From the NCBI GenBank assembly GCA_019637975.1, contig JAHBUR010000004.1, positions 32,209 through 96,208 of the forward strand: DNA of 64,000 nt, read 5' to 3'. Under the pieces are notes generated by a model. That model ran no database searches, was not told the DNA's origin, and was given only the letters and a program-made list of their open reading frames with translations. The position numbers were made by a program, and so were the translations under genes. Position 1 is the first letter of the stretch, and each line of letters starts with the position of its first letter. Positions 1 through 37,909 of the stretch are shown here, one piece after another. The stretch is from Bacteroidota bacterium (GTDB taxonomy: Bacteria > Bacteroidota > Ignavibacteria > UBA10030 > UBA6906).

Positions 1-549
1 TCCGACTTTCTTCGGTACGGCCTTTCCCTTGTCGTTCTGCTCAACGATGTAATCCATTTTTGAACGCATGGTTGCAATGACGTGGAGCTTCGAGCGAATC
101 ATCGCCTCGACGAACGCGTTATGCTTCGGTGTGAGCTTACGCCATGCGGTAAAGCTGTTCATACCGCCATCGGCGAGCTTGCCTTGCGTATCGAGCAAGC
201 CTCCCTCCCCGGCCCACGCGTGCGAGATGCTGTCAAGAATCAGCACGGCATAGTTTCCCTGCTCGGCAGCTTTGATGGCGTTGATGTATTTGTCAATATC
301 GAACGGCGGTTCGATGTTCAACACATCGAAATCGATCCGGTCAGCGTAGAGGACGCTGGAGTTGTTCTCGGTATCGATAAGCGCAAGTCTCCCGCCGTTC
401 GGCGTAAGTCCACCGGCAATCTTGAGTGCAGTCAACGTCTTGCCTGAACCCGACGGACCGGAGAGACCGATGCGGGCTTTCTTGGTGACATACTGTGCCT
501 TCTTGAATTGAAGGATGGAGGGTTTGGGGAATGTGGTTGGGGTGTTCAT
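1..549 (-). CDS. AAA_24/Sak4-like phage-type ATPase; C-terminal part beyond the window start
   Basis: Reverse-strand ORF not in the track because it runs off the edge. ATG at 549..547 preceded by GGAG. Translation begins MNTPTTFPKP... and contains the Walker A GPSGSGKT and a hydrophobic-D (VLILD) Walker B-like segment. Confidence 0.55.
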   Translation of the reverse strand, partial: MNTPTTFPKPSILQFKKAQYVTKKARIGLSGPSGSGKTLTALKIAGGLTPNGGRLALIDTENNSSVLYADRIDFDVLNIEPPFDIDKYINAIKAAEQGNYAVLILDSISHAWAGEGGLLDTQGKLADGGMNSFTAWRKLTPKHNAFVEAMIRSKLHVIATMRSKMDYIVEQNDKGKAVPKKVG

Positions 550-564
550 GGTGGTGCTCCTTTG

Positions 565-598
565 ATTAAGGTTGAGGATTAGGTTAAGGTTGAGTTGC
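565..598 (-). repeat. AACCTT-like hexanucleotide tandem repeat in a 5' leader
   Basis: Plus strand reads ttaaggttgaggattaggttaaggttgag, immediately upstream (minus sense) of the RBS of the AAA ATPase gene. Confidence 0.6.
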
Positions 599-611
599 AG
601 AGTCCAGTTGG

Positions 612-1118
612 TTAGAAGCTTACTTGAAGCGTGACTCCACCTGAAAGAAACTTTGCCGGATAGATTGGTTCGCCGGATTCATCCTTCATGGGATCGGTGA
701 TGCTTTCAAGGAACTTCTTGCGGGCTTTCAGCTGTGCATCGATCTCTGCCTTCTTCGCTTCGAGTTGGGTAACGAGCCTGTCGTTATACTCGAACTTCTT
801 CGGCAACTGCTTGAGTTGTACCCGTGCGCCAAAGATTTCGCAATTGGAATCGTGCACGTCAACGATTGCATGCTCTTTGACCTGTGCGCACGCGATCTCG
901 AGGATTTCAATCACGTTGCGGATGCGGACAAAGGCCTCGAGCGAGGATTGCTCTTCGAGCAGCCGGCTGATCAAGTGTGTCGCATACTCCGTGAACTGCG
1001 GTTTTGGTACAACTCGCCGAAGTATTGCGACCTGGTCGGTTTCGATGAGTTGCGGTCCTGCAACCTCGGCAGTTGCGATATCCTGAAAGAACTCATCGTG
1101 GTGGTTGGTGTTGGGCAT
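612..1118 (-). CDS. hypothetical protein, likely phage-derived
   Basis: 168-aa ORF with a strong RBS (AGGAGG, rc of cctcct at ~1123-1128) upstream of the ATG. It sits in a co-oriented block with the AAA ATPase. No recognisable motif. Confidence 0.5.
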   Translation of the reverse strand: MPNTNHHDEFFQDIATAEVAGPQLIETDQVAILRRVVPKPQFTEYATHLISRLLEEQSSLEAFVRIRNVIEILEIACAQVKEHAIVDVHDSNCEIFGARVQLKQLPKKFEYNDRLVTQLEAKKAEIDAQLKARKKFLESITDPMKDESGEPIYPAKFLSGGVTLQVSF

Positions 1119-1130
1119 GGTGTCCTCCTA

Positions 1131-1170
1131 GGGTTAAGGTTAAGGTTAAGATTGAGGTTTAGGTTTAGTG
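1131..1170 (-). repeat. AACCTT-like hexanucleotide tandem repeat in a 5' leader
   Basis: Plus strand reads agggttaaggttaaggttaagattgaggtttaggtttag, directly upstream of the AGGAGG RBS of the 612..1118 gene. Same motif as 565..598. Confidence 0.6.
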
Positions 1171-1400
1171 TTTGTACACGCAGCTTCTGCGGCGGCGTTG
1201 CGTTGGGCGATTTTTGCATACCGGCGCTTGCGGTCTTCCCGGTATTCCTGCTCGGTGGCAGGGCAGACTTTGTTTTTCGCAATGGAGACAACAGTAGAAT
1301 GGAACGTGACATATTGAATGGTGTCGCCGTTGTCGCGATAGAAGAAGCCGAGCACAGTTTTGCCTGATATGCGCTTGATGGGTTGATAGGGTTTGAACAT
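1146..1400 (-). CDS. small hypothetical protein (~84 aa from the internal ATG)
   Basis: ORF 1146..1496; the internal start MFKPYQPIKR at 1400 is more plausible than the upstream start. Co-oriented with its neighbours. Confidence 0.35.
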   Translation of the reverse strand: MFKPYQPIKRISGKTVLGFFYRDNGDTIQYVTFHSTVVSIAKNKVCPATEQEYREDRKRRYAKIAQRNAAAEAACTNTKPKPQS

Positions 1401-1436
1401 TGTTGCACCTGTTGTTGCTGAGACCGCCGCCGCCGA

Positions 1437-1660
1437 TAAGCGCCCCCGAAAAAGAAAAGGGGAAAAGAAAAAGCGGGGGTTGTGGCACAACGGCAAACGA
1501 AAAAGGCAAGGGCGCGTTTACGACGACCGCCGGAGCGAAGCGCAGGCGGGCGGAGTGCGTTCACTTTACCCTTGCCTTTTTCCTCCTGAGCACTAACTAA
1601 GATGTTTGCCGTTGTATCTTGCGCCGCTTTTTCTGCTTTTTCCCCCTTTTCATTTTTTGC
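1437..1660. repeat. long imperfect A-tract palindrome (nested inverted repeats); candidate origin or regulatory region
   Basis: Left arm gcgcccccgaaaaagaaaaggggaaaagaaaaagcggggg pairs with the rc of right arm gcgccgctttttctgctttttcccccttttc. Inner pairs are acaacggcaaacgaaaaaggcaagggcg with cccttgcctttttcc...tgtttgccgttgta. Confidence 0.55.
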
Positions 1661-2660
1661 TTGGGGGCGATCCATACGGGGAAATTCCAAAGTGGTTGAT
1701 CGTTGATGGTTCAGAGTTGATGGGGTGATGACCGGGGATGGAAGACGGAAAAAGGGGTGACGCTTGAGGGCAGACGTCGGACGTCAGCGTCAAGGGGCTT
1801 GGCGTGACTTTGGTGTGAAACTGATCGTCTATCGAAATATCAATGAGGCGGCGGCCAAAGGCATGCCAAGCCTATAACATGCTGAGGGCCGCAAGTACGC
1901 CGAGCGAAGTGATGAGGGAGGCGTTCTTGCTCATGGCTTCTTGTGGGAAAGGCGGCAGTATGTGACCCGCAGTGAATCGATTCATTTTCAACAACTCACT
2001 CGCGGGCACTTTCTGCCGCCGTGCGGCTGGCCTCGTGCCAGCAACGTTGTGGCGGTTCATTCAGTGCAGTTTGTGTGACGGGAATGAGACGAAACTATGT
2101 TGCAACAGGGTCTTTGGAGAAGCGGCAGGATATTTAGGGTTGAAGCTATATCCTTATAGATGATCTTGAGATGGCAACACGCTGCCGCTGTGCACGGGGA
2201 TATATGCGCACGCACGCGCAAAGACCTTTTTCATGGCTTAGCAATGTTTGCACACTTACTATGTATTATGGAGTAGGCTGTGCATCAATGACTCAGTGGG
2301 CCCCTTCCCGTTGCAGGTAACTTTGTGGCGGCGTGCCATTCTTAACTTCAATGTTTCGGAGCACGGCAAGACGACACAAATTTGCTCCAGAGGAGCTTTG
2401 GGAGAGGATGCTTGGTGCAACCGATGTCGTCGTCTTTTTGTCAGCGAATTGTGACAGTCTATCTGTGGTTGGATTACTATCAATGAGCTCGACGAAGTGT
2501 AGCGGAATACGAAGGCAGGTGTTCTTGTAGAAGGTTTGGGAAGAGGCGGCTTTATCCGTCTTGAGTTTTATGAGCAAACGGGATTGCTCAACTCTGAGTC
2601 GACCAATTCCAATGAGACGGCCCTTGATCTGTGTCAAGCCAAGGTGAGGCAGCAGAATCT

Positions 2661-4109
2661 TTACTTACGTACCTCCTTGTTCTTTGCATTCAAGGCTACG
2701 GAGAGCTTCTCAGCCAGAGTATATCCAGTTTTCGGAATCTTGTGGCGGTCGCGGTGATTTTTGCATGCTCTTGCGTGCAGACGGTAAAACAAACAAGACT
2801 CACCGGTACAAGTGTCATTCGGGCAATAGTCGATAGGCATTTTCTCTAGCCATTCAATTTCGGTTAGAGCGATGCCAAGTAAGTTGTTCATTTGAATCTT
2901 GCTTGGAATAAAATCCTTCGCTTTGGGTGACCCACAAATTAAGAGACTGTCGGAGGGATGAAGAAACCACTTATGCATCATGCCCGGCAACCTTAGTCGT
3001 TGATAATCGGGGGTGGTCTTTTCTTCGATACATTCAGCTATGCGAACTTTTTCAGCCAGGCTCGGCATCGAGAACTTGTTAAGCGGTCCCCTACGGTTTA
3101 ACAAAAGAGAAGTTGCACCGGAGAAACCATCGCGGTAGATAATTAGATCCGCATGCACACGAAATCGTGCTGCTTTGATGACCATCCCATTTGTGGACAC
3201 TACACTAGCGATGCTTACATTCCTGACCTTGTGAACGATTCCTCTATTGTCAAATTCTTCCAAGGCATTTGCCCACTGTTTTTCTCTTTCCCAAATTGCA
3301 TCCAACCAAAAATTAAATGTTCCAGTAATGCGCTCTTGATTGCCTTCTTCGCGAAACATCAGACCAGCAAGCAACGCGGGCAAAGAGACCATTTCATCTA
3401 AGGGATCTGGAGAGAAAGCAATTTCTGGATTCTCAATCAGTCGACGGTGCAATTCACGAATGGTAACCAAGGTTGGTTCTGCACTTCCAACCACTGAACC
3501 TCGGTCAAGCAGATATTTCCCTATCAATTCCTTCAGCAACAATCTGCTGTCTGGAGCATTCTGTGAATCTGTTTTTTCTTTTCTCTCTAAATACAATGTG
3601 ATAACCTCCAATACGTTCATACCCTCATGTAAGAGGCGGTACGAATCGGAACCGTAGAGCAATTGGAGACCACTGAGAATAGTCGGCAGTGTTCCTAAAT
3701 GGTGGACATAATCTCTAGAGCGGATGCTTTGCCCGGTGGTATCCTGCAGGCGTGTATACTGAATTAGACTTCGCCAGGCTGGATCGTCGCTTATGCCAAC
3801 CATCTCCGCTGTGAGATCTGCCGCGCAGCGATCTTGTTTTTCTTTAGTGACTTGATTCTCAACGGGATGCGAGTCCAGCCGCCCGCCACCAACGTCGACT
3901 GCAAGTATGCCTTCTTTTTCCAATTCCTCAGACGACTTTCCTTCAGGGAGCTTTCCGGCAGGGCAGAACGCAATATCTGCCGTTCGCGCACCCGGAAACT
4001 GCGCTTCGCCAAAACGGCGCAGGACAAGTGTGGAGAGCATAGCATCAAGATCCGGGGACTCATGAGTGAGAATACACCTTATGGGAATCGGTCTCATTTG
4101 TTTGCCCAT
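2661..4109 (-). CDS. DHH-superfamily-like phosphoesterase (482 aa) with an uncharacterised C-terminal half
   Basis: N-terminal motifs are consistent with DHH motifs I-III: THESPDLDAMLS (HxxPDxD..S), ILAVDVGGG and RLDSH (degenerate DHH). The start codon abuts the stop of the giant ORF, with 1 nt between them. Confidence 0.45.
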   Translation of the reverse strand: MGKQMRPIPIRCILTHESPDLDAMLSTLVLRRFGEAQFPGARTADIAFCPAGKLPEGKSSEELEKEGILAVDVGGGRLDSHPVENQVTKEKQDRCAADLTAEMVGISDDPAWRSLIQYTRLQDTTGQSIRSRDYVHHLGTLPTILSGLQLLYGSDSYRLLHEGMNVLEVITLYLERKEKTDSQNAPDSRLLLKELIGKYLLDRGSVVGSAEPTLVTIRELHRRLIENPEIAFSPDPLDEMVSLPALLAGLMFREEGNQERITGTFNFWLDAIWEREKQWANALEEFDNRGIVHKVRNVSIASVVSTNGMVIKAARFRVHADLIIYRDGFSGATSLLLNRRGPLNKFSMPSLAEKVRIAECIEEKTTPDYQRLRLPGMMHKWFLHPSDSLLICGSPKAKDFIPSKIQMNNLLGIALTEIEWLEKMPIDYCPNDTCTGESCLFYRLHARACKNHRDRHKIPKTGYTLAEKLSVALNAKNKEVRK

Positions 4110-4110
4110 T

Positions 4111-7100
4111 TCATCTTATCAAGTATTGGTGGACGGATATCCCTGACTTGAGGAATAAATCTCGGCTATTGAGTGTGTCCGGCGGCTCCATGCGACCAGT
4201 GCGATTGTCTAGGAAATTCTGCAAAAGGAGAGTTAGGAATGACGGTGATGACCGCCGAGCCTCTAACAAGTAGCTTAGTGAACCGTAATCTCTTAGCGCG
4301 ACTGCTAGCCCTGTTGAAAAAATGATCGAATTTGAGTCGGATTCACTTTCGGGATGATAAGAATTGCAATATTTCTTTAAGAGGTCGACGAGGTTGTCAA
4401 ACCAGGCTTCCTCACTGGGCCTGCCAGTAGGTCGTTCGTGCAACCGCCCAGCCAGAAAACTCATGCACAGCCTTAGCACTTCGATACGCCGTCGCCAAGC
4501 TCGGTCTTCTTCCACAGATCCGAGATGATAGCCTGCTTCCTCAAGATGTTCTTGGACCTTTTCTTCGTTTTGCGAAACAAAATAGAGACACGCAAGCAGA
4601 TAATGGAGCCGACCGACTTTCAATGTTGGTTTTGTTTTGACTTCACGAATCCAGTTTTCAATCGTATCGACGGTGCTGCCTAATTCTCCTGGGATGTATT
4701 GCTCAAGGGGATTTGTTGCTCTTCCCATTGTAGCAACAGCGTGATTCTCCATATCTTGTTTCCAATCCGGCCAATACGGCTGCAAGAACAATTCGAAGTG
4801 ACTACCAAGGCGTTGGACAACCTCCTCAACAAGTTGAGTATAATCCATATCGGCGCCGCTTCGTCTGGCGGCAATGATGCGCCCGAGACCCGCATTCAGT
4901 GATTCTGGAATTCTCTCGTGTGTGTAGTTGACCATAGCATAGATCACTTTCCAATCTATGGAGTGTTCTTGATGGGATCGGTGAATATCTGCATACTCCT
5001 CAACGGACAAAAAATACTCTATTGCAGCAAGAAGCACCAGTGGATCCTGATCCTCACGATAAAGCTGCGGGTTCATTATGATTCTTGCTGTTCCCGACAG
5101 GAATGACGACCAATCATCCCGTGAAGCTTCCGGGATGACAGCAAACAGATGCAACTGTCGCAAGGGTGCAGCCAAGAAACGCGCTACAGCTGTCGCTGTT
5201 GTGCTATTAATTGGAACAAAGAGTTCTGACAGTTGGCTTCCAAAGGCCAGCCAGTCGTATTCTGAGTGCTTCGATTGTTTGCGACGATCCCAGAGATTTG
5301 TCCAAACCAATTCGGCCCATGCCGGAAAAAATTTACAGCATGTGTCCCAAGCCACTTGTTTACGATGAATCATTGAACTTTGACTGCGTACTGATAAGTG
5401 CCTCTTCTTCCCGATCATGAACTGGCTCAGACGTACCTCATCTCCAGTCTCTAAGGGTTCGTGAAATTCACTCTTGACGTAGTTCATGGCAACCATACCA
5501 TACGATTGCTCGTAACGCACTAATAAACAGTCTGGATGTTTAGAAACAATTTTGGCCACGAAGGTTTCGTTTCGTCCAGCATCGTCAAATGTTGGTACAC
5601 GGCTCAAGAGGATCCTTCCTTCTGAGGGACTCCATTCACGAAGAACGCAGCTAATGGCCATATTCTTCTGCAGCTTGCCTTTTCCGAAATAGCCATAAAT
5701 CAGCTCGTCGTACAGAATGAAAGTGACAAATCCAGGAAATTGTATGAATGCACCTTCTGCACAGGCTCGCTTGACAATTCCAGGTAGTAGAGATGCCACA
5801 CCAAAAGTTTGAACTCTTTCACTCAAATATTGATCGTAGCTTACTTCAATCGTGCGATCAGCGGCAGTGATCAGCACAGGGATTTCAAGGTTCTTCAAGT
5901 TGTCAAGGTTAATGTTGTTTCTCGAGAGACACTTGGCTTCTTGATTTGGCAAGAAGCCTGTCAAAGCGGCGTCTTCTTCGAAAACCACGCGATAACCATT
6001 TTCAAGAATCTCCTCTATTCGCACTCTTGCCAACCTACCAGTTCCCCGAACCGCGTCTTCCTTGACCTCATGCTGCAACCCGACCTCCACCCGAGTGATT
6101 TGAAAGACCCCATGTTCGCTATAGCGCAAGCCTTCATGCGCAACCATCAATCGCCCATGTAAGCGATCCCCGGGCTTAAGCCAAAGAAAGCTGCTGCGTT
6201 GTTCCGCAGGAAGCGCGCTGAGTTGAAGCAAAAGTCGTTCTTCTATCTTCTTATGGTTTGTGTAAAACACAGAGAAATAGTTTCTACTAATTCCCCACTT
6301 TTCGAAAACGAAAGAAGCGTCTTTAATATAGCCCTCACGATTAGGGTGAGGCGGTTGAGCGCTCTGTAAGAAGATCTTCCAGAGCCAGCCATCACGAAGG
6401 AACATTTCAATTTCCAACCGAAAGGAAATATTGTCGAATCTTACGACATGCGCGATGATGCGATCGCCACGGCGCAGATCTTTGATTCTCTGCGGACGGT
6501 CGAAGCGCGATAGCGGAATGCGATAGTTCATTCCTGGGACACGTTCAACAAGGATAGGTTCGTCAGACTTCGCAGTGTCTTGAAGCATCGTGAACACCAG
6601 ACGTTTTTCGTTGGGGTTTTCTAAAAAGAACTGATCCAATTCCCCCACTTCCCGCGGAGTACTTCCGGTCAGAGAAAGCTTGGAGGAATTATCGTGCTTA
6701 ACCAAAATTGCGCTATGCCATTCTCCGACATTAAAATTGAGGGTGCCGGGATGCATAACCGGATGCATCGGGCGAGTCAAGCCGAAGAGTGACAACGATG
6801 AGTTGGAAGTAAGATCAGGGAACTTGAGATTTCCTACAGGTCCGTTTGCGGGTCGAACTCGCCAACCGGTGTTGTTACCTTCAGGAACGAGAAGCTGGAT
6901 CTCAATCTCGTATTTTTGGTGCTTATCACTATCCCAAATGCGGAAAACGAAGGCTTCCTGCTCTTTATCAAAGTGTCCGAAAACTACGGAAAAAATATCC
7001 TGATCGGATACTTTTTCCGTCAAGATCTGAGCATCCTCGAGTGCTAGGAAAGCCTGAACATGCTGCAATTGGATGTGCCTTTTCGCAGCTTCTCCCAAGA

Positions 7101-10100: not shown

Positions 10101-12132
10101 GCAACAAATCTAATAAATTTTGGATCTCCCGAACCGGCAACTTCATGAGTACTGGTACGCTTTCGATCCAGCGATATTCCTTGATGTCACTAATCAGATC
10201 GAGGGGGGGGTGCCTATCTTCCAGAGCAAAAGGACAATTTTGATAAGGCATCTTGGGGTGGTTTGTCGCTAACTCAAGCCAAAGCGTCAGTTTTCGCGCG
10301 CGCACCGTCTCTTCATCAAATGCCTTCTTCAAAACCATCGCGTCCTTGATATGGCGGAGTTGCGAATCCTCATTCCTGAGTACAATCAATTCGTCGTCAG
10401 TCGGAATAAACCGGCTCAGATTCTCAGAGAGATCAAGCTTTTCTATCAGGAACGAGAATTGCACGAACCGCTTGATCATCGTTGCTCGATCCGGTGCTTG
10501 ACGTAATGCGTCTCGTAAAATGCATCTGAGTTCTTCAATTAATTCTGGCATTAAAACTTGCCGCTCGTCCAAAAGTTCGTCTTCTGGAGTGAGAAGCATA
10601 TTCCATAGATGCAAAAAATCCTCCATTTTGAAGCCAGACACGGAACTCTTGTAGCATGCTATGCTTTTTCGTAATATTGGATTGCGATTCCACACTTCGC
10701 CCTTTCCAATGTAGAGCGTCACCAAGTTGTTGGCGACATACCTGCTGTTGTACCTAACGAGATCATTCCACTTCTTCGGGTTGAGACTGCGGCATTTCCC
10801 CATGACTTGCATAACATGGTTTTCGACAGCTTTTCGCGAGCGTCCCAAGGTCAAGAGATGCTGAACGATTTCTTGACACTGCTCAGATTTGAACTGATCG
10901 AAGTTACGCACTAAGGCAAAGTGCCACATCTGCAATGTGTAGCTGACGGATTCGCATTGTAACCCCGCATCGAAAAACTTCCTTAGCTCAAACAACGAAT
11001 CGCAAGCACCGATTTCTCCAAGTGCTTTGATCGCGTTCTGGCGGTTGGCGTCCTTACATTGGTCAGGCTTGTTTCTGTAGTCATTCTGCTGCCGAATGAC
11101 ACTCTCCAGCGCATGGATCAGTCTGATCCTGTTTTCCCGAGTCTTTGCAAATGCCTTCTCAAGATTCTCACCATCAGCAACGGACCTTATCTTCCATTTC
11201 TCGAGCAAAGCCTCCCATTGTTCCGACGACCAATAGCCATCATGACATCTTTTGGATTGTTCGACCAAGCCGTCGCTCATTCTTTCATCATGGAGCATAT
11301 TGCCGATGATGGAGCGGGCAGATTCATACAAGGGTGTCGCCCATAACAGCCTAGCGCTACGTATTCCAGATTCAATCACCTGATAGTAAGCGTGAGGATC
11401 GTTACTGTACTCGAAATCTTTGTACGGAGGCGGTTGGATTAGCTCCAGCGCGACGTCAAAAGCCGAAGTCGTTTCGTCCTTTGGCAGACCCGTTCTTCCG
11501 AAGAAATCCAGAATTCTCCGAAGAACGAAAGGGTCTAAGTCCATTTTGAGAAGACTGTGTAATTGTTCGCCCAACTTAGCATTAGGGAATTCGCTCTGGA
11601 AATCTTTTTCGATGAAATCTACAAAGCGCGATCTGCTCGTATCTCCAACATCGGCCGGTAAGCTGAAAATCCCAGACTCGGTCCCGAGCCATAGGAGATC
11701 AAGGCCGTGCCGGTGATTCGGCTGAAAATAGCTGGGTGCCTCCCGGGAGCTTATCCCTTTCCTAGGTGGTTCTCCTTGCTCCAGCAGATCTAGTCCCTTG
11801 CGTATAATTTTTTTCAAGTTCTGCGGTAGAGGGTTGGCATAGAAAGTTTCGAGATCGACACCGACATATTCCCAACGTTCCGGAAATCTCTCACGCATAA
11901 TTTGGGCAGCCCATTTCCTTATTTGCTCCTCATGAACAAATGACCCAGTGACAAGCCCTAAAAAGTATTCGCGTTCATCGGGGTTTGTCATCTGAGCCAA
12001 GCAATCTTCCATCTTCTGCATCCCGCGCAGTTGCACTGCAGACCAGGGGGAAGTCAAATACTCTTTGACGGACTTGATTTTATCAATTAGGCTAAGAGAC
12101 TCGAATCTCGCTAGGCGCTTGTTCTTTGCCAT
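4111..12132 (-). CDS. giant 2673-aa protein of unknown function; alpha-helical N-terminal third, then repeated beta-rich (S1/OB- or SH3-like) modules
   Basis: Uninterrupted 8-kb ORF. No Walker, helicase or obvious nuclease motifs. Recurrent G-D-R-[IL]...V...F modules, for example GDRIIAHVVRFDNISFRLEIEM and GDRLHGRLMVAHEGLRYSEHGVFQITRV. Overlaps the upstream STAND gene by 22 nt. Confidence 0.85.
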   Translation of the reverse strand: MAKNKRLARFESLSLIDKIKSVKEYLTSPWSAVQLRGMQKMEDCLAQMTNPDEREYFLGLVTGSFVHEEQIRKWAAQIMRERFPERWEYVGVDLETFYANPLPQNLKKIIRKGLDLLEQGEPPRKGISSREAPSYFQPNHRHGLDLLWLGTESGIFSLPADVGDTSRSRFVDFIEKDFQSEFPNAKLGEQLHSLLKMDLDPFVLRRILDFFGRTGLPKDETTSAFDVALELIQPPPYKDFEYSNDPHAYYQVIESGIRSARLLWATPLYESARSIIGNMLHDERMSDGLVEQSKRCHDGYWSSEQWEALLEKWKIRSVADGENLEKAFAKTRENRIRLIHALESVIRQQNDYRNKPDQCKDANRQNAIKALGEIGACDSLFELRKFFDAGLQCESVSYTLQMWHFALVRNFDQFKSEQCQEIVQHLLTLGRSRKAVENHVMQVMGKCRSLNPKKWNDLVRYNSRYVANNLVTLYIGKGEVWNRNPILRKSIACYKSSVSGFKMEDFLHLWNMLLTPEDELLDERQVLMPELIEELRCILRDALRQAPDRATMIKRFVQFSFLIEKLDLSENLSRFIPTDDELIVLRNEDSQLRHIKDAMVLKKAFDEETVRARKLTLWLELATNHPKMPYQNCPFALEDRHPPLDLISDIKEYRWIESVPVLMKLPVREIQNLLDLLRCMLQDERTNSHYGFLYGGLNKYVRQHLSGEAAYYLYEELRGETELTDAELSKFAWLSLLRASQFANEHHLPFPPEGQSDRTGESEAVSSRLASALAQLDFEETLVGTAEGGTVKLLTQESLHHHRNVVFASPVMGLRNVWRVVTNRADFPSAIADKIKNLHLNTEPQSNKQICVGDCVLGSIERLCETNSGEKFIVDLGASYPKGIWSEPEIGETQTEKLGNLGQLHLFMVAGREQAGDLILSKRALIASLKEVLLNVRDNLEMEVALDAINLEGNVRVLCGHLPFEVSREEVSWANLQNTLEVIKLLEERQERIKICLVRPAEGAKVIFSFKRRKPVWGAEKLAMFFGTAPFKLTFVNLDKNDLLFEVHTSLPESDYPDHFVRPGTLCKLSAERMVDKDEFNYHPLLTAYPPKCGETFEAQWLLPQVNQRDNRPWQQQGECVLKLRRIAPYRYDLHGKFELEARVTIIAQPSKPWSDKPQTVEIIEPQFEERPVPAILEWDKVDSEMLLHLGEIDEVLKLRAKIIGYRESVPLVIPLIDEFRKFEVGDWYHLKVIGSSRDDWRNWLNLSHWTTRESFVINEDQLAYNPKITIQDFPCDTVVEARYVGKNEKRGEMEFSLLLDSPEETIQSVERLKLPANGIYIGYQEKGYDRYVWIERKPGICLRIARQCFEDFGRTHFYAGDAVSLKPGRELNRVLLVHNLQVQSGGIRSILAQEEPLKGLVISEDGLVRVTPPGIRSMNGRLVGGGSHYRTRARIDVRAERIWMSCSSGIPKLHGDLVPVADSTTVPGIDSILKEKTKNEFFNVWGRVQSAGKDGLRIKSWNYDSDITFLVPYRDISHVVSRRDYQYYQSRANRNLVRGFRVMGVDTEKKLVKLSLCQGIPQNLNRNGKLNAEFGIDKGEACLIRISEDNRSYIFETATLVICRVSVDDILITPGQRRSYFNWKFIDGMFSFAFSDNNKLVLRALPVRSLSETLNSLRNHVFRCHLSNEREKWRIRFLGEAAKRHIQLQHVQAFLALEDAQILTEKVSDQDIFSVVFGHFDKEQEAFVFRIWDSDKHQKYEIEIQLLVPEGNNTGWRVRPANGPVGNLKFPDLTSNSSLSLFGLTRPMHPVMHPGTLNFNVGEWHSAILVKHDNSSKLSLTGSTPREVGELDQFFLENPNEKRLVFTMLQDTAKSDEPILVERVPGMNYRIPLSRFDRPQRIKDLRRGDRIIAHVVRFDNISFRLEIEMFLRDGWLWKIFLQSAQPPHPNREGYIKDASFVFEKWGISRNYFSVFYTNHKKIEERLLLQLSALPAEQRSSFLWLKPGDRLHGRLMVAHEGLRYSEHGVFQITRVEVGLQHEVKEDAVRGTGRLARVRIEEILENGYRVVFEEDAALTGFLPNQEAKCLSRNNINLDNLKNLEIPVLITAADRTIEVSYDQYLSERVQTFGVASLLPGIVKRACAEGAFIQFPGFVTFILYDELIYGYFGKGKLQKNMAISCVLREWSPSEGRILLSRVPTFDDAGRNETFVAKIVSKHPDCLLVRYEQSYGMVAMNYVKSEFHEPLETGDEVRLSQFMIGKKRHLSVRSQSSMIHRKQVAWDTCCKFFPAWAELVWTNLWDRRKQSKHSEYDWLAFGSQLSELFVPINSTTATAVARFLAAPLRQLHLFAVIPEASRDDWSSFLSGTARIIMNPQLYREDQDPLVLLAAIEYFLSVEEYADIHRSHQEHSIDWKVIYAMVNYTHERIPESLNAGLGRIIAARRSGADMDYTQLVEEVVQRLGSHFELFLQPYWPDWKQDMENHAVATMGRATNPLEQYIPGELGSTVDTIENWIREVKTKPTLKVGRLHYLLACLYFVSQNEEKVQEHLEEAGYHLGSVEEDRAWRRRIEVLRLCMSFLAGRLHERPTGRPSEEAWFDNLVDLLKKYCNSYHPESESDSNSIIFSTGLAVALRDYGSLSYLLEARRSSPSFLTLLLQNFLDNRTGRMEPPDTLNSRDLFLKSGISVHQYLIR

Positions 12133-15068
12133 GTGTTAACCTCTGCATTCTGCGTATGTTGTAACTTATCCATGAATGATCTGAATGATGTGCGTTGTTG
12201 CTCTGTAGGCAGCTTCGTCAGAATCCTCTCAAGTACCTTGATGTGAGCGGAAACTCGCGCGACAGCTTTAGCTTCCTCAAGGTTAATTCTTGTACGAGAC
12301 TCAAGGAAAAAGTTTGCCACTTTGTCCCTGTGCGTTAGCGAAACTTCCGGCATCTTTGCAAGGCTTTTCAAAAGTTGGATGGTCGAAAGTCTGCTGAGTA
12401 TGGCTAATTCTTTCTCATTTTCCCCTCCTTGGTGATAGCGTGTCAACAACGCAATAGCCGCACGTAAGCGCAGCAGAGGAACTTTTCCAGTAGCGACAAT
12501 GTCTTCCAGTTTCGAAATTTCACCACAGGCAATAAGATGCTGGAGTATTCTATCCTTTACAAGTGGAGCTACTTCCTTATCGTAGAAGGTCGTAAGCCAA
12601 CTAGCTGCTTCAGTAAGACTCGTGGATTGCATTAAGTCAAGTGCAACCTCTTTCAAATTGTTGTCCCGACGATCTTCCCCCAGTTCGCACAGTTTTTGAA
12701 TGAAGGTCAGTGATGCAAATTGGCTCCAGCCCCGCAAAGCATAAAGTAGAGCAATTGTCCTCTGCGGATCTCGCACGTAAAGTCTCTCGGGCGCCTCCAG
12801 AATATCATTCATCCAAGTTTGAATGATGTCCCGTTGATTAGGTTCCAGACAAAAGAAGGAAAACGCGGAAAGAATTCGATTGATAGTGGCCGTGTCAAGA
12901 GAATTTCGATATTCGAAGCACGCCTTGACGGCTTGCTCTGCTGCATTTTCGATCGGATATTGTTCGATGATGCTTAACCACTCCTCCCAAAGTCGTGGCG
13001 AATTCCCATAGAGATCGGAACGGAGTTTTTCGGCGCCGTTAGAATGAAAGAGTTCACGCAATGATTGATGACGTCGTATCAAGTGATCAGAAAGCAGGTC
13101 GCACAAAGCAGGCGGTATCTCCTGATTCCCAAGAGCGAGATCGTCAAGCGTCATTTCACGTTCGCGTGTACTTTCTTCCCGTAACTCAGGATAGGTCTTC
13201 ATCATATGGATGAGTTGGTCCCATGTCTGCTGATTCGCGTTGGATTGGGCTGAAACTCTCCATAAGAACTTGATCGCTATGCTGGCTTGATCTGAAGAGC
13301 GGATGTTTCTGAAGCGTTCGAAGCATTTTGAGACGACCAGATCCCAATCACGGCTATCCGATAGCCTTTCCAAAAAGAGTATTGCCAGCGACCAGAAATT
13401 GGGATTCTCCGACAACGCAGCGACCCCACCCGATATTTGGGCACGATTACCAGACCAAATGGTCAAGGCTGCCTCCACCACCCAGTAATTGAGCATGAAC
13501 GGAAAGGAAATGGTGACCGTTGAGAAATCTCTTTGCAAAATGTCCTTCAAGACAACAGGGCCCAATTCTGGGAACGGGAATTCCCTGCGTTCGGCCTCAA
13601 AGCTCTCTGCGTCGATTTTTCCGTTCCAATCCTTCCATGTTTCCGGAGGGGAATTCAACCACTGTCTGGCGAAGGGTCTGATTATCAGCAAATCGACTTC
13701 TTTTATCTTTTCGTTACGTCGAAGACCAGATGGCAACACTTGTTTGAGAAAGCCATGGCTGAGTTCACGCAAGTAGTCAATATCGGACCCACCTTCAGCA
13801 GCACTTTGGTAATAGTTCAGCAACAGGTTCAAACCGAACAAACTATCCTTAGGTAGTGGAGATGAAGGCGACACCCAGAAATTATACAAGCTACCCCACT
13901 TTTCTCTAAGGAGACTGCGCTGAGCACGCAAATATTGCCACACTTCCGGAATCGATGGGGGACATATCGACATTTCCCGCCAGTTCTTGAGTTCGCCTCC
14001 GTGTTCTCTAAAATCTTTGCTGCGCAGACTGAGCCAAACGCGATTTGCCCGTCCCTCACGTTCATTTTCATCACGCAACCGTCTTAGCCAAGCCGGCAAT
14101 AGCCTGTATTTTTCTTCGGCAGGATCAATCTCATCCAAATACAACCACAGGCTACCCTTATTCCAGCAATACTGGAGAGTTTCAAACTCTGGCCACAATG
14201 CCGATCTAAGAATCGTGAATGGAGGTCCATCGTTCGTGTCAAAGTCCTTGATCGCAGCAAAGCTCACTGGCAAGGGCCAATGTGTCGGATTTTGCTGTAG
14301 GTACAAAAGTTCCCGTACTACATGAATCATGAGTGACGTTTTCCCACTGCCGACGTCGCCAGTAATAATTGCATAAGGACTGTCGCATGCCACTTCCAAG
14401 GGTGACAGCCTCTGCTCGGTGAGATGCAGAGGACAATAAGGCTGCCCTGGAGTCTCCAGGATCGGATCCTGTTCCCATGCTCTCGGCCCTCGGTTCCAGT
14501 ACTTCCTTATTGCGTCTCGAATTTCGCCACTGGTTGGATCTTGCCGTTGTTTATTATCTAATTTGCCTCCGTATTCATGCGCAAATATGTCCTTGATTCG
14601 AGAGAATTTGGGATAGTCTGTGTTATAGAGATTGACTATTTTGTGCAATAGATCCTTGGCCGAGAGAATATGCTTTTTAGGATCGAACCATTGGTATTTG
14701 CTCTTTTTCATCCTTGGGCGATCAAGTTTGAGAATAAGAAACCGAAGTCCGTTGGTGAAAGTTTTGTCATGCTGATACTTGACAAAAGCCTCTAGCGTGT
14801 CTCTTATTTTTGTTCCATCAGTTCTCGATGTTATTTGAAAAGCAACCTTACCTTGTGTATTATCGCCCAAGTCAATAGCCGGAAAATTTGCTTGTTTCTG
14901 GTTGAGGTTTTCCAGTCTCAGATCAAAGATCGTATTTAAGACATCTTTGCATAGATCTTCAGAAAGTTTGTTGATATCGAAAAAGTTTAAGGCATTCTGC
15001 GAATCAATTTCGCTGAGCCATTCCATCACATATTTCGATATGGTTTGTATTTCGGTTTGCTTATTCAT
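12111..15068 (-). CDS. STAND/NACHT-type NTPase (985 aa) with an uncharacterised ~230-aa N-terminal domain and a C-terminal helical-repeat region
   Basis: Walker A ITGDVGSGKTSLM at about residue 240; Walker B LWLYLDEIDP; a long C-terminal alpha-repeat (HEAT/TPR-like) region. This is the architecture of antiviral STAND (Avs-like) proteins. Confidence 0.7.
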   Translation of the reverse strand: MNKQTEIQTISKYVMEWLSEIDSQNALNFFDINKLSEDLCKDVLNTIFDLRLENLNQKQANFPAIDLGDNTQGKVAFQITSRTDGTKIRDTLEAFVKYQHDKTFTNGLRFLILKLDRPRMKKSKYQWFDPKKHILSAKDLLHKIVNLYNTDYPKFSRIKDIFAHEYGGKLDNKQRQDPTSGEIRDAIRKYWNRGPRAWEQDPILETPGQPYCPLHLTEQRLSPLEVACDSPYAIITGDVGSGKTSLMIHVVRELLYLQQNPTHWPLPVSFAAIKDFDTNDGPPFTILRSALWPEFETLQYCWNKGSLWLYLDEIDPAEEKYRLLPAWLRRLRDENEREGRANRVWLSLRSKDFREHGGELKNWREMSICPPSIPEVWQYLRAQRSLLREKWGSLYNFWVSPSSPLPKDSLFGLNLLLNYYQSAAEGGSDIDYLRELSHGFLKQVLPSGLRRNEKIKEVDLLIIRPFARQWLNSPPETWKDWNGKIDAESFEAERREFPFPELGPVVLKDILQRDFSTVTISFPFMLNYWVVEAALTIWSGNRAQISGGVAALSENPNFWSLAILFLERLSDSRDWDLVVSKCFERFRNIRSSDQASIAIKFLWRVSAQSNANQQTWDQLIHMMKTYPELREESTREREMTLDDLALGNQEIPPALCDLLSDHLIRRHQSLRELFHSNGAEKLRSDLYGNSPRLWEEWLSIIEQYPIENAAEQAVKACFEYRNSLDTATINRILSAFSFFCLEPNQRDIIQTWMNDILEAPERLYVRDPQRTIALLYALRGWSQFASLTFIQKLCELGEDRRDNNLKEVALDLMQSTSLTEAASWLTTFYDKEVAPLVKDRILQHLIACGEISKLEDIVATGKVPLLRLRAAIALLTRYHQGGENEKELAILSRLSTIQLLKSLAKMPEVSLTHRDKVANFFLESRTRINLEEAKAVARVSAHIKVLERILTKLPTEQQRTSFRSFMDKLQHTQNAEVNTWQRTSA

Positions 15069-15259
15069 GCAAATGACAGATTTGGAGCGAACTCAATAGT
15101 TGGTCATTGTGTCAACCAATCGTTTGACGAGTCATCTTCTGACTGGCCCCATTGGATCATCCGTTTGTCCACATGCCTCTCCCACTCACCAGATTTCAAC
15201 GATACTGTTCTCCAAAAAAAACGGCAACCCATTTTTGCGATCGGCCAGTTATTCACGCT

Positions 15260-17570: not shown

Positions 17571-17849
17571 ATGAGCAAACAGAGACATACGGCAGAGCAA
17601 ATCATCGGCAAACTTCGCGAAGCAGAAGTGTTGCAAGCAAAGGGGATGTCGATGGAAGAGGTAATGCGCCAGTTGTGTATCAGTGATGCAACATATTACA
17701 AGTGGCGGAAAGAGTATGGCGGTCTTCGCGTTGATCAAGCAAAACGGCTGAAAGAGTTGGAACATGAGAACAGTCGGTTGCGCAAGGTGGTGTCAGATCT
17801 CTCGATCGATAATGCCATCTTGAAGGAGGCGGCCCGGGGAAACTACTGA
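17571..17849 (+). CDS. IS3-family transposase OrfA (HTH)
   Basis: 92 aa, MSKQRHTAEQIIGKLREAEV...ATYYKWRKEYG, typical of IS3/IS911 OrfA. Confidence 0.8.
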   Translation: MSKQRHTAEQIIGKLREAEVLQAKGMSMEEVMRQLCISDATYYKWRKEYGGLRVDQAKRLKELEHENSRLRKVVSDLSIDNAILKEAARGNY

Positions 17850-17872
17850 GCCCGGCCAAACGGCGCCGGGCG

Positions 17873-18704
17873 GTGGAAGAGATTGTGGAGGCACTTCACG
17901 TATCCGAACGACGAGCGTGTCGCGTGTTAGAGCAGCCGCGAACAACACAACGTCATCAGGCGTCACGCCGAAGCGATGAGGAACCGTTGCGGAAACGGAT
18001 TGTTGCCTTGGCGTGTCTGTACGGACGCTATGGGTATCGGCGAGTAACGGTGTTACTGAGGGACGAAGGCTGGCGAGTGAATCACAAGCGCGTTGAACGC
18101 CTATGGCGCCAGGAAGGCTTAAAAGTGCCGCAACGACAAGCCCAAACGGAGACGGTTGTGGTTCAATGATGGGTCATGCATACGGTTACGTCCGTTGTAT
18201 CGGAACCACGTGTGGAGCTACGATTTTGTTGCAGATCGTACGAGTGATGGCAAGCCGATACGGATATTGAACATTCTAGATGAGTATTCACGCGAGTGTT
18301 TGAAGATTCGCATCGACAGACAGATGAAAGCAGTAGATGTGATTTATGAATTGTCGGAACTGTTTGTTGAACGCGGAGTACCGGATTACCTCCGCTCTGA
18401 TAACGGGTCGGAATTTGCAGCGGCGATAGTCCGTGATTGGCTGAAACGACTCGGCGTCAAGACACTCTTTATCGAACCAGGGAGTCCATGGGAGAACGGC
18501 TACATCGAATCATTCAACGGAAAAATGAGAGATGAATTATTGAATGGAGAAATCTCTGATACTATTCTGGAGGCACGGGTGATCACAGAACGATGGAGGA
18601 AGGCATACAACACGGTTCGACCACACAGTTCATTGGGATACCGTCCACCGGCGCCAGAAGTACACCAATATCTTAGCTTGCCAGTGGCTGAGCAAATTAA
18701 CTAA
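17873..18704 (+). pseudogene. IS3-family transposase OrfB (DDE integrase core) disrupted by a frameshift near 18156-18169
   Basis: Two frames, 17873..18169 and 18156..18704, together encode a typical OrfB (YRNHVWSYDFV...DNGSEF...PWENGYIESFNGKMRDE). The expected ...QRQAKRRRLWFNDGS junction is broken. Confidence 0.7.
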
Positions 18705-28685: not shown

Positions 28686-29138
28686 TCAGGGTTGGCGTGA
28701 GCGTTTTGTCTTTGATTCTGCGTGCCCCAGCACTTCACGGCATAGCTGGACAAATTCTGCCAGGCTGAGATCACTCTTTGCATCGTTCACGCGCCATGAG
28801 CAGATCCTAAAGTTCGGTGCATCCATACCATCGTCCACGTGATCGACGGTTGGCAGGTCGCCAAAGTTCTTCTTATACGCTCTTCCGCCAGCTTGAGCTG
28901 CATCATTATCGTAACGGGAAATGAGTTCCCATTTGAGTGGAAGACCAGTGTACGCATCCACACCATTGCTCGCTGTGACAGCTGCGTGAATGGCTTTCTT
29001 GTAACTCCCAACCTTTGCAGTAGTATTCCCGCGCTTTCTGTCCCGGCGGACATGGGCATTCGCTTTTGCATGCAACCATTTCTGGTATACACGCTCGGAG
29101 CACTTGCCATGAAGAAAGAAAGGTAAGGTGTACTTCAT
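28686..29138 (-). CDS. small HNH-like endonuclease candidate (150 aa)
   Basis: TVDHVDDGMDAPNFRICSWRVNDAKSDL fits a degenerate HNH pattern (D-H...N-x3-C...N-xx-K). Last gene of the cluster headed by the PtuA-like ATPase. Confidence 0.35.
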   Translation of the reverse strand: MKYTLPFFLHGKCSERVYQKWLHAKANAHVRRDRKRGNTTAKVGSYKKAIHAAVTASNGVDAYTGLPLKWELISRYDNDAAQAGGRAYKKNFGDLPTVDHVDDGMDAPNFRICSWRVNDAKSDLSLAEFVQLCREVLGHAESKTKRSRQP

Positions 29139-30061
29139 GAGCTCTCCTTGGTGCCGACAACGATACTTTCATCAACGAGTTCAAAGGGTGATGTCTCACG
29201 TTGGTAGTTAGCCCAATGAGAACGGTACTGAGTCTGCTCAAGCAAGTGCATGTCAACGTTGTCCCCATCAGGGCCTTCATCCAGCCCCCATTCGACCAGA
29301 ACACCTCCAAGATTTGTCAAGATAAACCTTGGATGCATTCTTTTTCCTCCCGCACCTTGTTCCCAAGCTTCAAACCTCTTCCAACGAACGAAATTGACGC
29401 TGAGAACTTTTGGAATAATATTCCCCAAGAGCTGGGTGCACCCCTTTGAAAACTTCGCCTTGTCCAGATTGCCCGAAGCAAGCAGGTGATATTCGATTCT
29501 CGTCTTTTGAACAGTGCCGCGAGCAACTTTGCCGAGGAACAACTCAAGGGGTCTTCGAAATCTCTCCTCGGCTGCGTCGAAGTGTGCATCAACGAAGAGA
29601 ATCTCAGTACTCATCTGAAGCAAACGACCGATTGCAGCTGCCATCGGCTCTGCTTTCCGTTGTACATTCCGCTGGCGGGGCGTGTTCCACAGCGGCGTCT
29701 CTTCCGATAGATCCTTCGCTATGAGAATATTCGGATGGCTTCGTGGGTTCTGATAGGAAACAATAGCATGAAACGGTTCCGCTTTGTGTGCCTGCTCTGC
29801 ATTTGCCAACCAATCAAGAGTTTCCGAGTAGTGACGATCGGTCTTGCAGAGCCGGTCGCCTATTGTGTGGAGCCTTTCTTCGATTCGTTTGAGTTCGATT
29901 TCCTTGCAGGCCTTTTTGCATGCCCGATAGACTACACGTTTCCATTTCTCGGGGTACTCGGCGATAATACGGCCATTGTGGACACCGCAATGGTCGACAA
30001 CGTAGCGGAAGTCTTGCCAGTTACTGATGGAGGCCGGCTCGATTGCATATTCGAATACCAT
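29135..30061 (-). CDS. hypothetical protein (middle gene of the AAA-ATPase cluster)
   Basis: 308-324 aa depending on the start. The MVFEY start at 30061 abuts the stop of the upstream ATPase gene. The Cys/His-rich segment DHCGVHNGRII...YRACKKACKE might bind zinc. Confidence 0.5.
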   Translation of the reverse strand: MVFEYAIEPASISNWQDFRYVVDHCGVHNGRIIAEYPEKWKRVVYRACKKACKEIELKRIEERLHTIGDRLCKTDRHYSETLDWLANAEQAHKAEPFHAIVSYQNPRSHPNILIAKDLSEETPLWNTPRQRNVQRKAEPMAAAIGRLLQMSTEILFVDAHFDAAEERFRRPLELFLGKVARGTVQKTRIEYHLLASGNLDKAKFSKGCTQLLGNIIPKVLSVNFVRWKRFEAWEQGAGGKRMHPRFILTNLGGVLVEWGLDEGPDGDNVDMHLLEQTQYRSHWANYQRETSPFELVDESIVVGTKESS

Positions 30062-30063
30062 GG

Positions 30064-37457: not shown

Positions 37458-37909
37458 GTGTTGTGTTGGTTCATGGTTCTGCGACCTCCCCCAACCCCCT
37501 CCTTATGTAAGGAGGGGGCAAGGGGGTGGTCGGCATCTTGCAAAGCAGAATGCCTCTCAATGGCACGATGTATCTTGTCTACGACTGCATCTACATTCCC
37601 TTCAACTTCCTCGTTGCGAAATCTTAAAAACCAAATATGAAACTGCTCAATGTACTTCTGCCGGTCACGGTCAGACTCTTGAGCCTCCGGGCCGTCGTGG
37701 CTCTCACCGTCAACTTCGATTGCGAGCTTCAGTTCAGGACAATAGAAGTCCAGAACAAAGGCACCAACGCTGAATTGACGCCGGAACTTGAACCCTCCGA
37801 GTTGCCGTCCTTTCAATTGTTGCCAGAGAATCCGTTCGGTGGCGGTCATGTTGTTGCGCAGGAATCGCCGTTTGGTCTTCTCGGAGGATCTGTTGTAGAA
37901 CAGGGTCAC
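37454..37909 (-). CDS. DUF559/Vsr-like endonuclease-domain protein with a C-terminal extension created by a palindromic element
   Basis: ILWQQLKGRQLGGFKFRRQ...VLDFYCPELKLAIEVDGESH is typical of DUF559. The tail ...PLAPSLHKEGVGGGRRT is encoded by element 37483..37533. Overlaps the hsdR stop and the hsdM start by 4 nt each. Confidence 0.7.
   Translation of the reverse strand: MTLFYNRSSEKTKRRFLRNNMTATERILWQQLKGRQLGGFKFRRQFSVGAFVLDFYCPELKLAIEVDGESHDGPEAQESDRDRQKYIEQFHIWFLRFRNEEVEGNVDAVVDKIHRAIERHSALQDADHPLAPSLHKEGVGGGRRTMNQHNT
37483..37533. repeat. 51-bp GC-rich compound palindrome, same family as 36099..36152, inside coding sequence
   Basis: cgacctcccccaaccccctccttatgtaaggagggggcaagggggtggtcgg. 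Confidence 0.75.

Follow-up and report, generated by a model that had tools for sequence, protein, structure and literature searches.

Which part of a large, immune-like protein would deliver its output when the N-terminus looks unfamiliar and a giant protein is encoded next to it? We addressed this question for a 64,000-nucleotide stretch of a Bacteroidota metagenome-assembled genome (MAG), positions 32,209 to 96,208 of contig JAHBUR010000004.1 (assembly GCA_019637975.1), hereafter called the window. On its minus strand lie genes for a 985-amino-acid protein (gene 1), a giant protein (gene 2), and a third protein (gene 3). An earlier note had described the product of gene 1 as a signal transduction ATPase with numerous domains (STAND NTPase) resembling the antiviral Avs proteins, with an unassigned N-terminal domain of ~230 residues that may be the effector or signalling module, and had offered the giant as the alternative effector, taking either case for a new arrangement. 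As judged from profile matches, the N-terminal domain is SMEK_N and no new domain, and that question can be considered closed for annotation. Related proteins carry other enzymatic domains in its place, and we give a probability of roughly 0.6 to the reading that the three genes encode an abortive-infection defence system resembling Avs and receptors with nucleotide-binding and leucine-rich repeat domains (NLRs), in which SMEK would act as a nuclease effector.

Gene 1 is a single uninterrupted open reading frame (ORF) with an ATG start. Because NCBI holds the identical protein (MBX2990095.1 and MCW5896763.1, named "SMEK domain-containing protein"; the source MAGs are Bacteroidota, their contigs at most 271 kb long) and full-length relatives exist (P0002, P0003, P0131, P0132, and P0133), it is a real gene, and the coordinates previously given for it are right (Table 1). 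The string quoted in the earlier note, NFPAIDLGDNTQGKVAFQITSRTDGTK, corresponds to residues 61–87 of the product, and the Walker A motif does follow the N-terminal region as described there, ~235 residues from the start.

The N-terminal SMEK domain and the slot it occupies

The N-terminus is matched by Pfam SMEK_N PF21941 (residues 10–144, E 2e-33; score 115.6 bits, cutoff 27), by NCBIfam NF033859 (residues 7–99, E 2e-24; score 85.3 bits, cutoff 30), and by the PADLOC model Aga_REase-PNTD1-PNTD2 (residues 1–178, E 1.6e-34). This last model describes a restriction-endonuclease-type protein associated with Argonautes of prokaryotes and is covered only at positions 1–180 of 463. It also matches chain D of PDB 26bh, the 'Mrr domain from Kordia jejudonensis Mrr-APAZ pAgo' (residues 2–167, E 1.7e-21; pAgo, prokaryotic Argonaute), and a profile built from 65 SMEK sequences finds that chain with E 5e-59. 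What had been called unassigned is therefore a curated Pfam and NCBIfam family with a solved homologue. No match came from a word-indexed search with the N-terminus alone; the full-length query and a seven-sequence profile did find homologues. The SMEK domain is also present on 42 PLSDB plasmids from many phyla.

The domain is shorter than had been proposed. Similarity to P0002 and P0003, which are 50–53% identical to the gene 1 product, begins only at about residue 170–180, and from about residue 178–183 on the sequence (IRDAIRKYW..GP..W..DPIL..YCPLHLTEQRL.PLE) is kept in relatives that have an entirely different N-terminal domain. This leader, with the pattern IRxAL..Y..GP..W..DPIL..YCPLHLTEQRL.PLE, is found in all members of the family, with C212, E218, R220, and P223 invariant, and the confidence of the AlphaFold2 (AF2) model is low over it. 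Since residues ~183–230 are conserved in relatives with other N-termini, they belong to the NTPase core and not to the N-terminal domain, and the alignments place the true domain boundary at about residue 170. The supposed ~230-residue domain is thus a SMEK domain of ~170 residues plus the leader of the core.

The strongest evidence for an effector role comes from what other family members carry in this position. In P0002 and P0003 the N-terminal domain is PNP_UDP_1 (E about 1e-16), in P0131, P0133, and L009 it is Trypsin_2 (E 1e-11 to 1e-13), with TCAHV, DIAIL, and G[IA]SGAPV visible in the alignment as His, Asp, and Ser-type motifs, and in P0132 and L008 it is TIR_2 (E 3e-34). Homology between relatives with different heads sets in immediately past the swap point. 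As effectors, nuclease, TIR, protease, and nucleosidase domains are the classic repertoire of conflict systems, antiviral STANDs included. Diversity of N-terminal effectors is typical of antiviral STANDs, and at least 20 of them have been reported for a single Avs family (PMC13581612). SMEK is likewise one of the N-terminal effector options of the Lamassu protein LmuA (bioRxiv 10.1101/2025.04.02.646746). Because one orthologous core bears SMEK, PNP_UDP_1, Trypsin_2, or TIR_2, the view that the SMEK domain behaves as an effector module is supported by sequence comparison, and the suggestion that the N-terminus might be the effector gains from both the domain swapping and the effector role of SMEK elsewhere.

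Whether the domain is likely to be catalytic depends on its conserved residues. In the 65-sequence alignment L67, D69, Q78, T80, and K87 are invariant and D31, N33, E37, N61, P63, D66, T91, and F95 are conserved in ≥90% of the sequences; gene 1 keeps all of them and shows every part of the family pattern (D..N...E, NFPxxDLxD, Q-x-T, and a lysine seven residues on). The AF2 model of residues 1–170 is confident (predicted local distance difference test, pLDDT, of 87–98 per 10-residue block), with the element order helix-helix-strand-strand-helix-strand and, among these elements, a helix at 31–48, strands at 67–69 and 75–80, a helix at 85–97, and a strand at 108–112. The model places D66/D69 and Q78/T80 at what would be the catalytic-residue positions of the PD-(D/E)xK fold, and the invariant K87 lies seven residues past Q78-x-T80, in the following helix. 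SMEK has been described as an Mrr-like nuclease that is the effector in short Argonaute systems of clade S2B, where it is fused to APAZ, and in vitro nuclease activity has been reported for the Kordia complex (PMC10810196; bioRxiv 10.1101/2023.06.08.544223).

Some results do count against a nuclease. The canonical D...(D/E)xK signature is replaced by the variant D66/D69...Q78-x-T80, which lacks the (D/E)xK lysine, fold matches to restriction endonucleases are weak (EcoO109I, E 0.06; viral PD-(D/E)XK/Mrr-like proteins, E 0.01–0.04), and aligning the SMEK profile with E. coli Mrr (EcoKMrr) in hhalign gave a probability of 0.05%, the single-sequence template making this a weak test. With a Q-x-T motif, no profile similarity to E. 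coli Mrr, and a nuclease activity of the pAgo-associated SMEK protein that has been called 'not studied in detail' (bioRxiv 10.1101/2023.06.08.544223), the domain could be catalytically inactive here and serve in nucleic-acid-binding sensing or recruitment, the output coming through sequestration or through signalling by the DHH-like third protein. We regard this as unlikely, given that D31, E37, D66, D69, Q78, and K87 show no or almost no variation in 65 diverse sequences, a behaviour typical of an active site, and that all of them are kept here and shared with the Kordia domain, for whose complex nuclease activity has been reported (PMC10810196).

The NTPase core

In an alignment of six core members, G240, G242, and K243 of Walker A and L307, W308, L309, D312, and P316 of Walker B are invariant, as are N342, R343, and W345 in an N342-R343-x-W345 strand after Walker B, and many tryptophans are invariant too. 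The AF2 model of the core, built from six sequences (mean pLDDT 75.8), shows a P-loop domain whose five strands run parallel, then a helical domain, a hairpin resembling that of a winged helix, and an all-alpha solenoid, the latter mostly with pLDDT 78–95. When this model was compared with the PDB by Foldseek, the top matches were NLRP9, NLRP5, NLRP7, NLRP14, the NACHT of NLRP3, SAMD9, and Avs3 (E 6e-5 to 2e-3, probability ~1.0), and the C-terminal solenoid matched the HEAT/ARM proteins CAP-G, SF3B1, PP2A-A, karyopherins, and CAND1. The Walker motifs, the domain layout, and these structural matches bear out the earlier description of a STAND-like NTPase, and we hold with moderate confidence that the core is a NACHT-like STAND NTPase. 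Its solenoid is presumed, from the model, to be a sensor or partner-binding domain.

Other results for the core weigh against this reading. No Pfam NACHT, NB-ARC, or nSTAND family reaches its gathering score (NACHT 17.4 bits against a cutoff of 26.7, NPHP3_N 18 against 24.8, nSTAND3 13.7 against 27.2). All NACHT, NPHP3_N, nSTAND3, and AAA_16 matches are sub-threshold, those of the relatives included, and the NACHT, nSTAND3, and AAA_16 ones centre on the P-loop region. Searching PDB sequences with the core profile gave matches at the P-loop level only, PDB searches with the core, the giant, and gene 3 yielded nothing beyond P-loop or chance matches, and in the PADLOC scan no Avs or other STAND model matched the core, with only a P-loop-level match to mad8 (E 0.012). 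In the model the nucleotide-binding domain has pLDDT of only ~55–80, and the template modelling (TM) scores of the core to NLRs are ~0.2, as expected for multi-domain comparisons.

The core family is extremely rare. An exhaustive HMMER scan with residues 171–985 against 1.84 billion cluster representatives gave five full-length clusters (P0001, P0002, P0131, P0132, and P0133) and two fragments, and a metagenome scan added the loci L008 and L009. No core relative was found in 185,579 GTDB species representatives, nor in IMG/VR or PLSDB.

The giant partner, the third gene, and their loci

The three genes are predicted to form one tightly coupled minus-strand operon, the start of gene 2 overlapping the end of gene 1 by 22 nucleotides and the start of gene 3 following the stop of gene 2 by 1 nucleotide; the intergenic stretch upstream of gene 1 is the probable promoter region of this operon. 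Each locus of sufficient length to show it has a giant orthologue directly downstream of the NTPase, the complete loci examined being the window, L001, L002, L003, L004, and L008. In the PNP_UDP_1-type loci it is 2,679 residues long and 55% identical to that of the window (L002) or split into 1,957 and 710 residues (L001), both with a third gene of 478 codons, 66% identical to gene 3 in L002. The Trypsin_2-type locus L003 has a giant of 2,677 and a third protein of 475 residues, and the TIR_2-type loci L004 and L008 have giants of 2,652 and 2,672 residues. The two ORFs of L001 (4370–12424) may stem from an assembly error or a frameshift, or the copy may be decaying.

The NTPase core and the giant rank alike in their divergence (52/39/28% for the core, 56/43/34% for the giant), uniformly along both proteins, from which it appears that they are inherited as a unit, with only the effector heads being swapped. 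The giant protein is soluble, lacks a Walker A motif, and has no match in Pfam, NCBIfam, PADLOC, or PDB sequences; eight seed hidden Markov models (HMMs) detected no internal repeats in it, and no relative was found in the viral contigs searched. Conservation is highest over the first ~400 residues and over residues ~1000–1300, and in a four-sequence alignment Q137, P138, H140, R141, H142, G143, L144, D145, L146, and L147 of its QPNHRHGLDLL motif are invariant. A by-eye impression of S1 repeats in the giant was kept only as a weak lead. The stretch of the L004 giant homologous to window residues ~2029–2101 matches Pfam S1 below the cutoff (E 0.008, 17 bits against 22), a windowed hhalign of the giant against a hand-typed S1 alignment peaked at 26% probability over residues 2029–2101, and a small S1 HMM, also hand-typed, found nothing significant.

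The conservation of the giant could be read in another way, with the giant as the true effector, a toxin or an enzyme, and SMEK as a signalling, DNA-binding, or oligomerisation adaptor. Its obligate linkage and translational coupling to gene 1 are in line with this, as are the invariant His and Asp residues of QPNHRHGLDLL, which could be catalytic, and the departure of SMEK from (D/E)xK along with its weak nuclease fold matches. Yet the orthologues fill the SMEK position with the classic enzymatic effectors TIR_2, Trypsin_2, and PNP_UDP_1, the giant matches none of the catalytic families in the four collections searched, and where immune systems are modular, it is the enzymatic module that varies which acts as the effector, the unchanging part being the sensor or hub (PMC13581612). 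We find an effector role of the giant quite unlikely, and the earlier alternative to that effect is disfavoured. Because the giant stays constant while the effector varies, comparison of the loci makes a role as co-sensor or scaffold more likely for it than one as effector.

Gene 3 has a DHH-like motif set (THESPDLDA, VDVGGGRLDSHP, and DYVHH), and H16, D20, D22, D72, D79, H81, D133, H136, and H137 are invariant among four orthologues. Pfam DHH matches are sub-threshold in all four aligned members, lie at residues 12–38 (motif I), and reach E 0.014 at best, and no NCBIfam, PADLOC, or PDB match was found, so the DHH assignment is a weak one. The gene is present in the SMEK locus, the PNP loci, and one Trypsin locus and is absent from the TIR_2-type loci L004 and L008, which indicates that it is not universally required. 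Scanning GTDB genomes with gene 3 gave a single relative, on a Patescibacteria MAG fragment (L006, JBBTXB010000006.1, 1226–1687). This relative is 37% identical over residues 22–182; its contig measures 2.1 kb, and the three-gene context appears to be lacking there.

Small genes also occur beside the NTPase in the related loci. In the Trypsin_2-type loci L003 (4560–5278), L005 (351–1073), and L009 (217–935) two conserved small genes lie directly upstream of it, one for a protein of ~86 residues whose Cys pairs (CPSCG...CPKYG in L009) by eye suggest a zinc ribbon and one for a predicted membrane protein of ~153 residues; they may be accessories specific to the effector type. An upstream gene of 188 codons in the PNP_UDP_1-type loci L001 (119–685) and L002 (290–856), whose L001 copy has a weak match to DUF3784 (membrane), may be another. 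L003 also has a FokI-cleavage-domain protein and a QueC-like protein nearby (535–3979), and L004 a DinG-type helicase fused to a DEDDh exonuclease (676–3300), possibly additional defence genes beside the system. In the window, an APH/kinase-like gene lies directly upstream of the operon; we rejected it as a component, since related loci do not conserve it and 190 nucleotides separate it from gene 1.

Table 1. Positions, in window coordinates, of the operon, its domains and motifs, and neighbouring genes
Feature	Position	Strand	Basis
Gene 1, 985-amino-acid SMEK-STAND protein MBX2990095.1	12111–15068	−	ORF and translation, exact NCBI match, full-length relatives
SMEK_N/Mrr-like domain, residues 2–167	14568–15065	−	Pfam, NCBIfam, PADLOC, PDB 26bh, alignment, AF2
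Conserved leader of NTPase core, residues ~183–230	14379–14522	−	Kept across N-terminal types, after swap boundary
P-loop nucleotide-binding domain, residues 231–370	13959–14378	−	Motifs, alignment, AF2
Walker A, G237-DVGSGK-T244	14337–14360	−	Matches GxxxxGK[ST]
Walker B, LWLYLDEIDP, residues 307–316	14121–14150	−	hhhhD[DE] and second acidic residue
Helical and winged-helix-like domain, residues ~371–536 (beta hairpin ~511–520)	13461–13958	−	AF2, Foldseek
C-terminal all-alpha HEAT/ARM-like solenoid, residues ~537–985	12114–13460	−	AF2, Foldseek
Intergenic stretch upstream of gene 1, 190 nucleotides	15069–15259	−	Sequence read
Gene 2, 2,673-amino-acid giant protein MBX2990094.1	4111–12132	−	ORF; conserved orthologues downstream of NTPase
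Most conserved short motif of giant, QPNHRHGLDLL, residues 137–147	11692–11724	−	Four-sequence alignment
Weak S1/OB-like stretch of giant, residues ~2029–2101	5830–6048	−	Sub-threshold, lead only
Gene 3, 482-amino-acid protein, DHH-like N-terminal motif	2661–4109	−	Orthologues in L001, L002, L003
APH/kinase-like protein, 413 amino acids	15260–16501	−	Pfam APH, E 5e-9, residues 231–303
IS3-like element	17571–18704	+	
Short ORFs preceding integrase	17571–17849, 17873–18169		
Integrase ORF	18156–18704	+	rve/rve_3, E 2e-28
324-amino-acid ORF	29135–30109	−	No family match
NsnB/AriA-like ABC/OLD-type ATPase, 567 amino acids	30064–31767	−	PADLOC NsnB (E 4e-44), PDC-M55A, HEC-03B, AriA; Pfam AAA_15/AAA_21
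664-amino-acid ORF	32559–34553	−	No Pfam or PADLOC match
Type I restriction-modification system	34561–40209	−	
HsdS	34561–35706	−	
HsdM	35706–37457	−	
151-amino-acid ORF	37454–37909	−	
HsdR	37906–40209	−	
CARF protein, 325 amino acids	40637–41614	−	RtcR-type N-terminus; PADLOC RtcR_PspF2--CARF_AAA_HTH (E 1e-18); CARF5

Known systems, genomic setting, and a possible mechanism

The gene 1 product has the same tripartite layout as Avs/AVAST and bacterial NACHT/NLR-like proteins, that is, an N-terminal effector, a central STAND NTPase, and C-terminal helical repeats, and its family shares with Avs an interchangeable effector within one family and a patchy accessory distribution. Avs3 and Avs4 carry N-terminal nucleases of the Cap4 or Mrr type, Avs2 a trypsin, and Avs5 a SIR2 domain, and Avs7 also belongs to the group; the characterised proteins mostly come as single genes or with a small accessory enzyme. 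In contrast, the family described here is tiny and unannotated, its core matches no Avs or NACHT model at threshold, its C-terminus is HEAT/ARM-like and not one of the TPR sensors described for Avs1–4 and Avs7, and it is coupled to a partner of 2,650–2,680 residues, usually together with a third gene for ~480 residues. We found no precedent for an obligate partner of 2,673 residues, a point against the Avs/NLR-like reading. With such a partner, and Avs being mostly single-gene, the activation logic may differ.

A second comparison concerns the SMEK-APAZ protein of the clade S2B short pAgo system of K. jejudonensis ('SPARMA', PDB 26bh). Its N-terminal domain is homologous to that of gene 1, with identical conserved motif residues, and in both cases SMEK stands at the N-terminus of a sensor-controlled protein, although control would be exerted here by a STAND NTPase and not by guide-directed recognition of nucleic acids. 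Membership in SPARMA was rejected, as APAZ is missing (only the SMEK part of the PADLOC Aga model is covered), a P-loop NTPase follows SMEK, and no pAgo accompanies it, PIWI/Argonaute having no match among the scanned neighbour genes of the operon. The effector menu of Lamassu LmuA comprises SMEK, Cap4, Mrr, protease, and Sir2 (bioRxiv 10.1101/2025.04.02.646746), but Lamassu is driven by LmuB/LmuC, which resemble structural maintenance of chromosomes (SMC) proteins, and the operon here is without an SMC-like gene.

The order SMEK, STAND-type P-loop, and TPR or other helical repeats recurs in other proteins (P0004–P0010, P0017, P0057, P0098, P0115, and Haur_5149 on a Herpetosiphon aurantiacus plasmid), for instance as SMEK with TPR in P0005 or as SMEK with NPHP3_N, AAA_16, and TPR in P0010, so that a SMEK-STAND fusion as such is not new. 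In these proteins only SMEK aligns with gene 1 (13–26% of the query), the NTPase and repeats are not detectably related to its core, and no giant partner is known. In the literature searched, the accession tables of a 2026 STAND survey aside, we found no report linking SMEK with STAND proteins of the gene 1 kind, and no PADLOC model covers the NTPase family, the ~2,670-residue partner, or the third gene. The arrangement announced as new is thus partly so: the fusion recurs elsewhere, and the novelty is the NTPase family with its obligate giant partner, to which the earlier note gave only a passing mention, and the third gene, not the SMEK domain.

The GC content is 0.456–0.479 across 2–16 kb, where the operon lies, against 0.49–0.55 in most of the remainder of the window, and this dip is consistent with horizontal acquisition. 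An IS3-like insertion sequence (IS) lies 1–2 kb upstream of the APH-like gene and the operon; the short ORFs that precede its integrase make it look like a frameshifted transposase. An NsnB/AriA-like ATPase, a Type I restriction-modification (R-M) system, and a CARF protein follow 15–26 kb from the operon. With these genes and the IS3 integrase in the window, the operon is in a mobile, defence-rich neighbourhood. The ATPase gene and the ORF downstream, which overlaps it by 46 nucleotides, look like a separate two-gene candidate defence system; the 664-residue ORF after the R-M genes is possibly an R-M-linked accessory defence gene, and the CARF protein, too short for the AAA+ and helix-turn-helix (HTH) parts of its best model, may be a stand-alone sensor beside the R-M system. 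The known defence genes are not directly adjacent to the operon, a point that tells against a defence role, and searches of plasmids, phages, and viral contigs did not turn up the system.

Such a setting also has to be weighed against a function outside immunity. The gene 1 product could be a STAND-type regulator or chaperone for the assembly or quality control of a giant with its own cellular function, e.g., RNA binding, as the faint S1/OB-like stretch of the giant, the lack of any known defence HMM covering core, giant, or gene 3, and the distance of at least 15 kb to the known defence genes might suggest. Against this stand N-terminal nuclease, TIR, trypsin, and PNP domains, which are toxin-type modules of conflict systems and not of regulators, the absence of any detected HTH or MalT/AfsR-type output domain, the very patchy and rare core (0 in 185,579 GTDB species representatives, five clusters in 1.84e9), and an operon that is lower in GC than its flanks and adjoins an IS. 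For these same reasons a mobile accessory defence module fits, and a non-immune role appears very improbable to us. A MalT/LuxR-type STAND regulator was rejected more specifically, Pfam showing no HTH family in the gene 1 product at E up to 0.1, the N-terminus being of nuclease type, and the context containing IS and defence genes. Hence neither the housekeeping fold nor the MalT-like NTPase that the earlier note had named as grounds for abandoning its proposal was found.

Under the preferred reading of an Avs/NLR-like abortive-infection system, gene 1 would combine a SMEK effector, an Mrr-like nuclease of the PD-(D/E)xK type, with a NACHT-like NTPase switch and a HEAT/ARM-like solenoid. The nuclease would be held inactive in the resting state. 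A trigger would be sensed by the solenoid directly or, more likely, via the 2,673-residue partner that the solenoid would bind, whereupon the NTPase would exchange or bind nucleotide and oligomerise. Oligomerisation would cluster the SMEK domains, leading to DNA cleavage and to the death or arrest of the infected cell. The weakly DHH-like third protein may be an accessory or regulator needed by only some effector types. A more elaborate version, which we put forward tentatively and consider doubtful, is a previously undescribed three-component NLR-like system in which the ~2,670-residue protein, possibly OB/S1-rich, would serve as obligate pattern sensor or assembly platform to a STAND NTPase whose effectors plug in, and a DHH-like phosphoesterase would tune or reset it. 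If true, this would be a bacterial division of labour between sensor and helper resembling that of paired or helper NLRs.

Control by STAND NTPases would be a third control module for SMEK, alongside short Argonautes and Lamassu, and this addition supports the idea of SMEK as a general-purpose defence effector. If the defence reading holds, the family would be a very rare NLR-like one that departs from the usual one-protein Avs design, with four interchangeable heads and a constant giant partner. Two questions would then be open to direct test, namely whether a STAND sensor in bacteria can hand recognition over to a giant protein of its own gene, and what this giant recognises.

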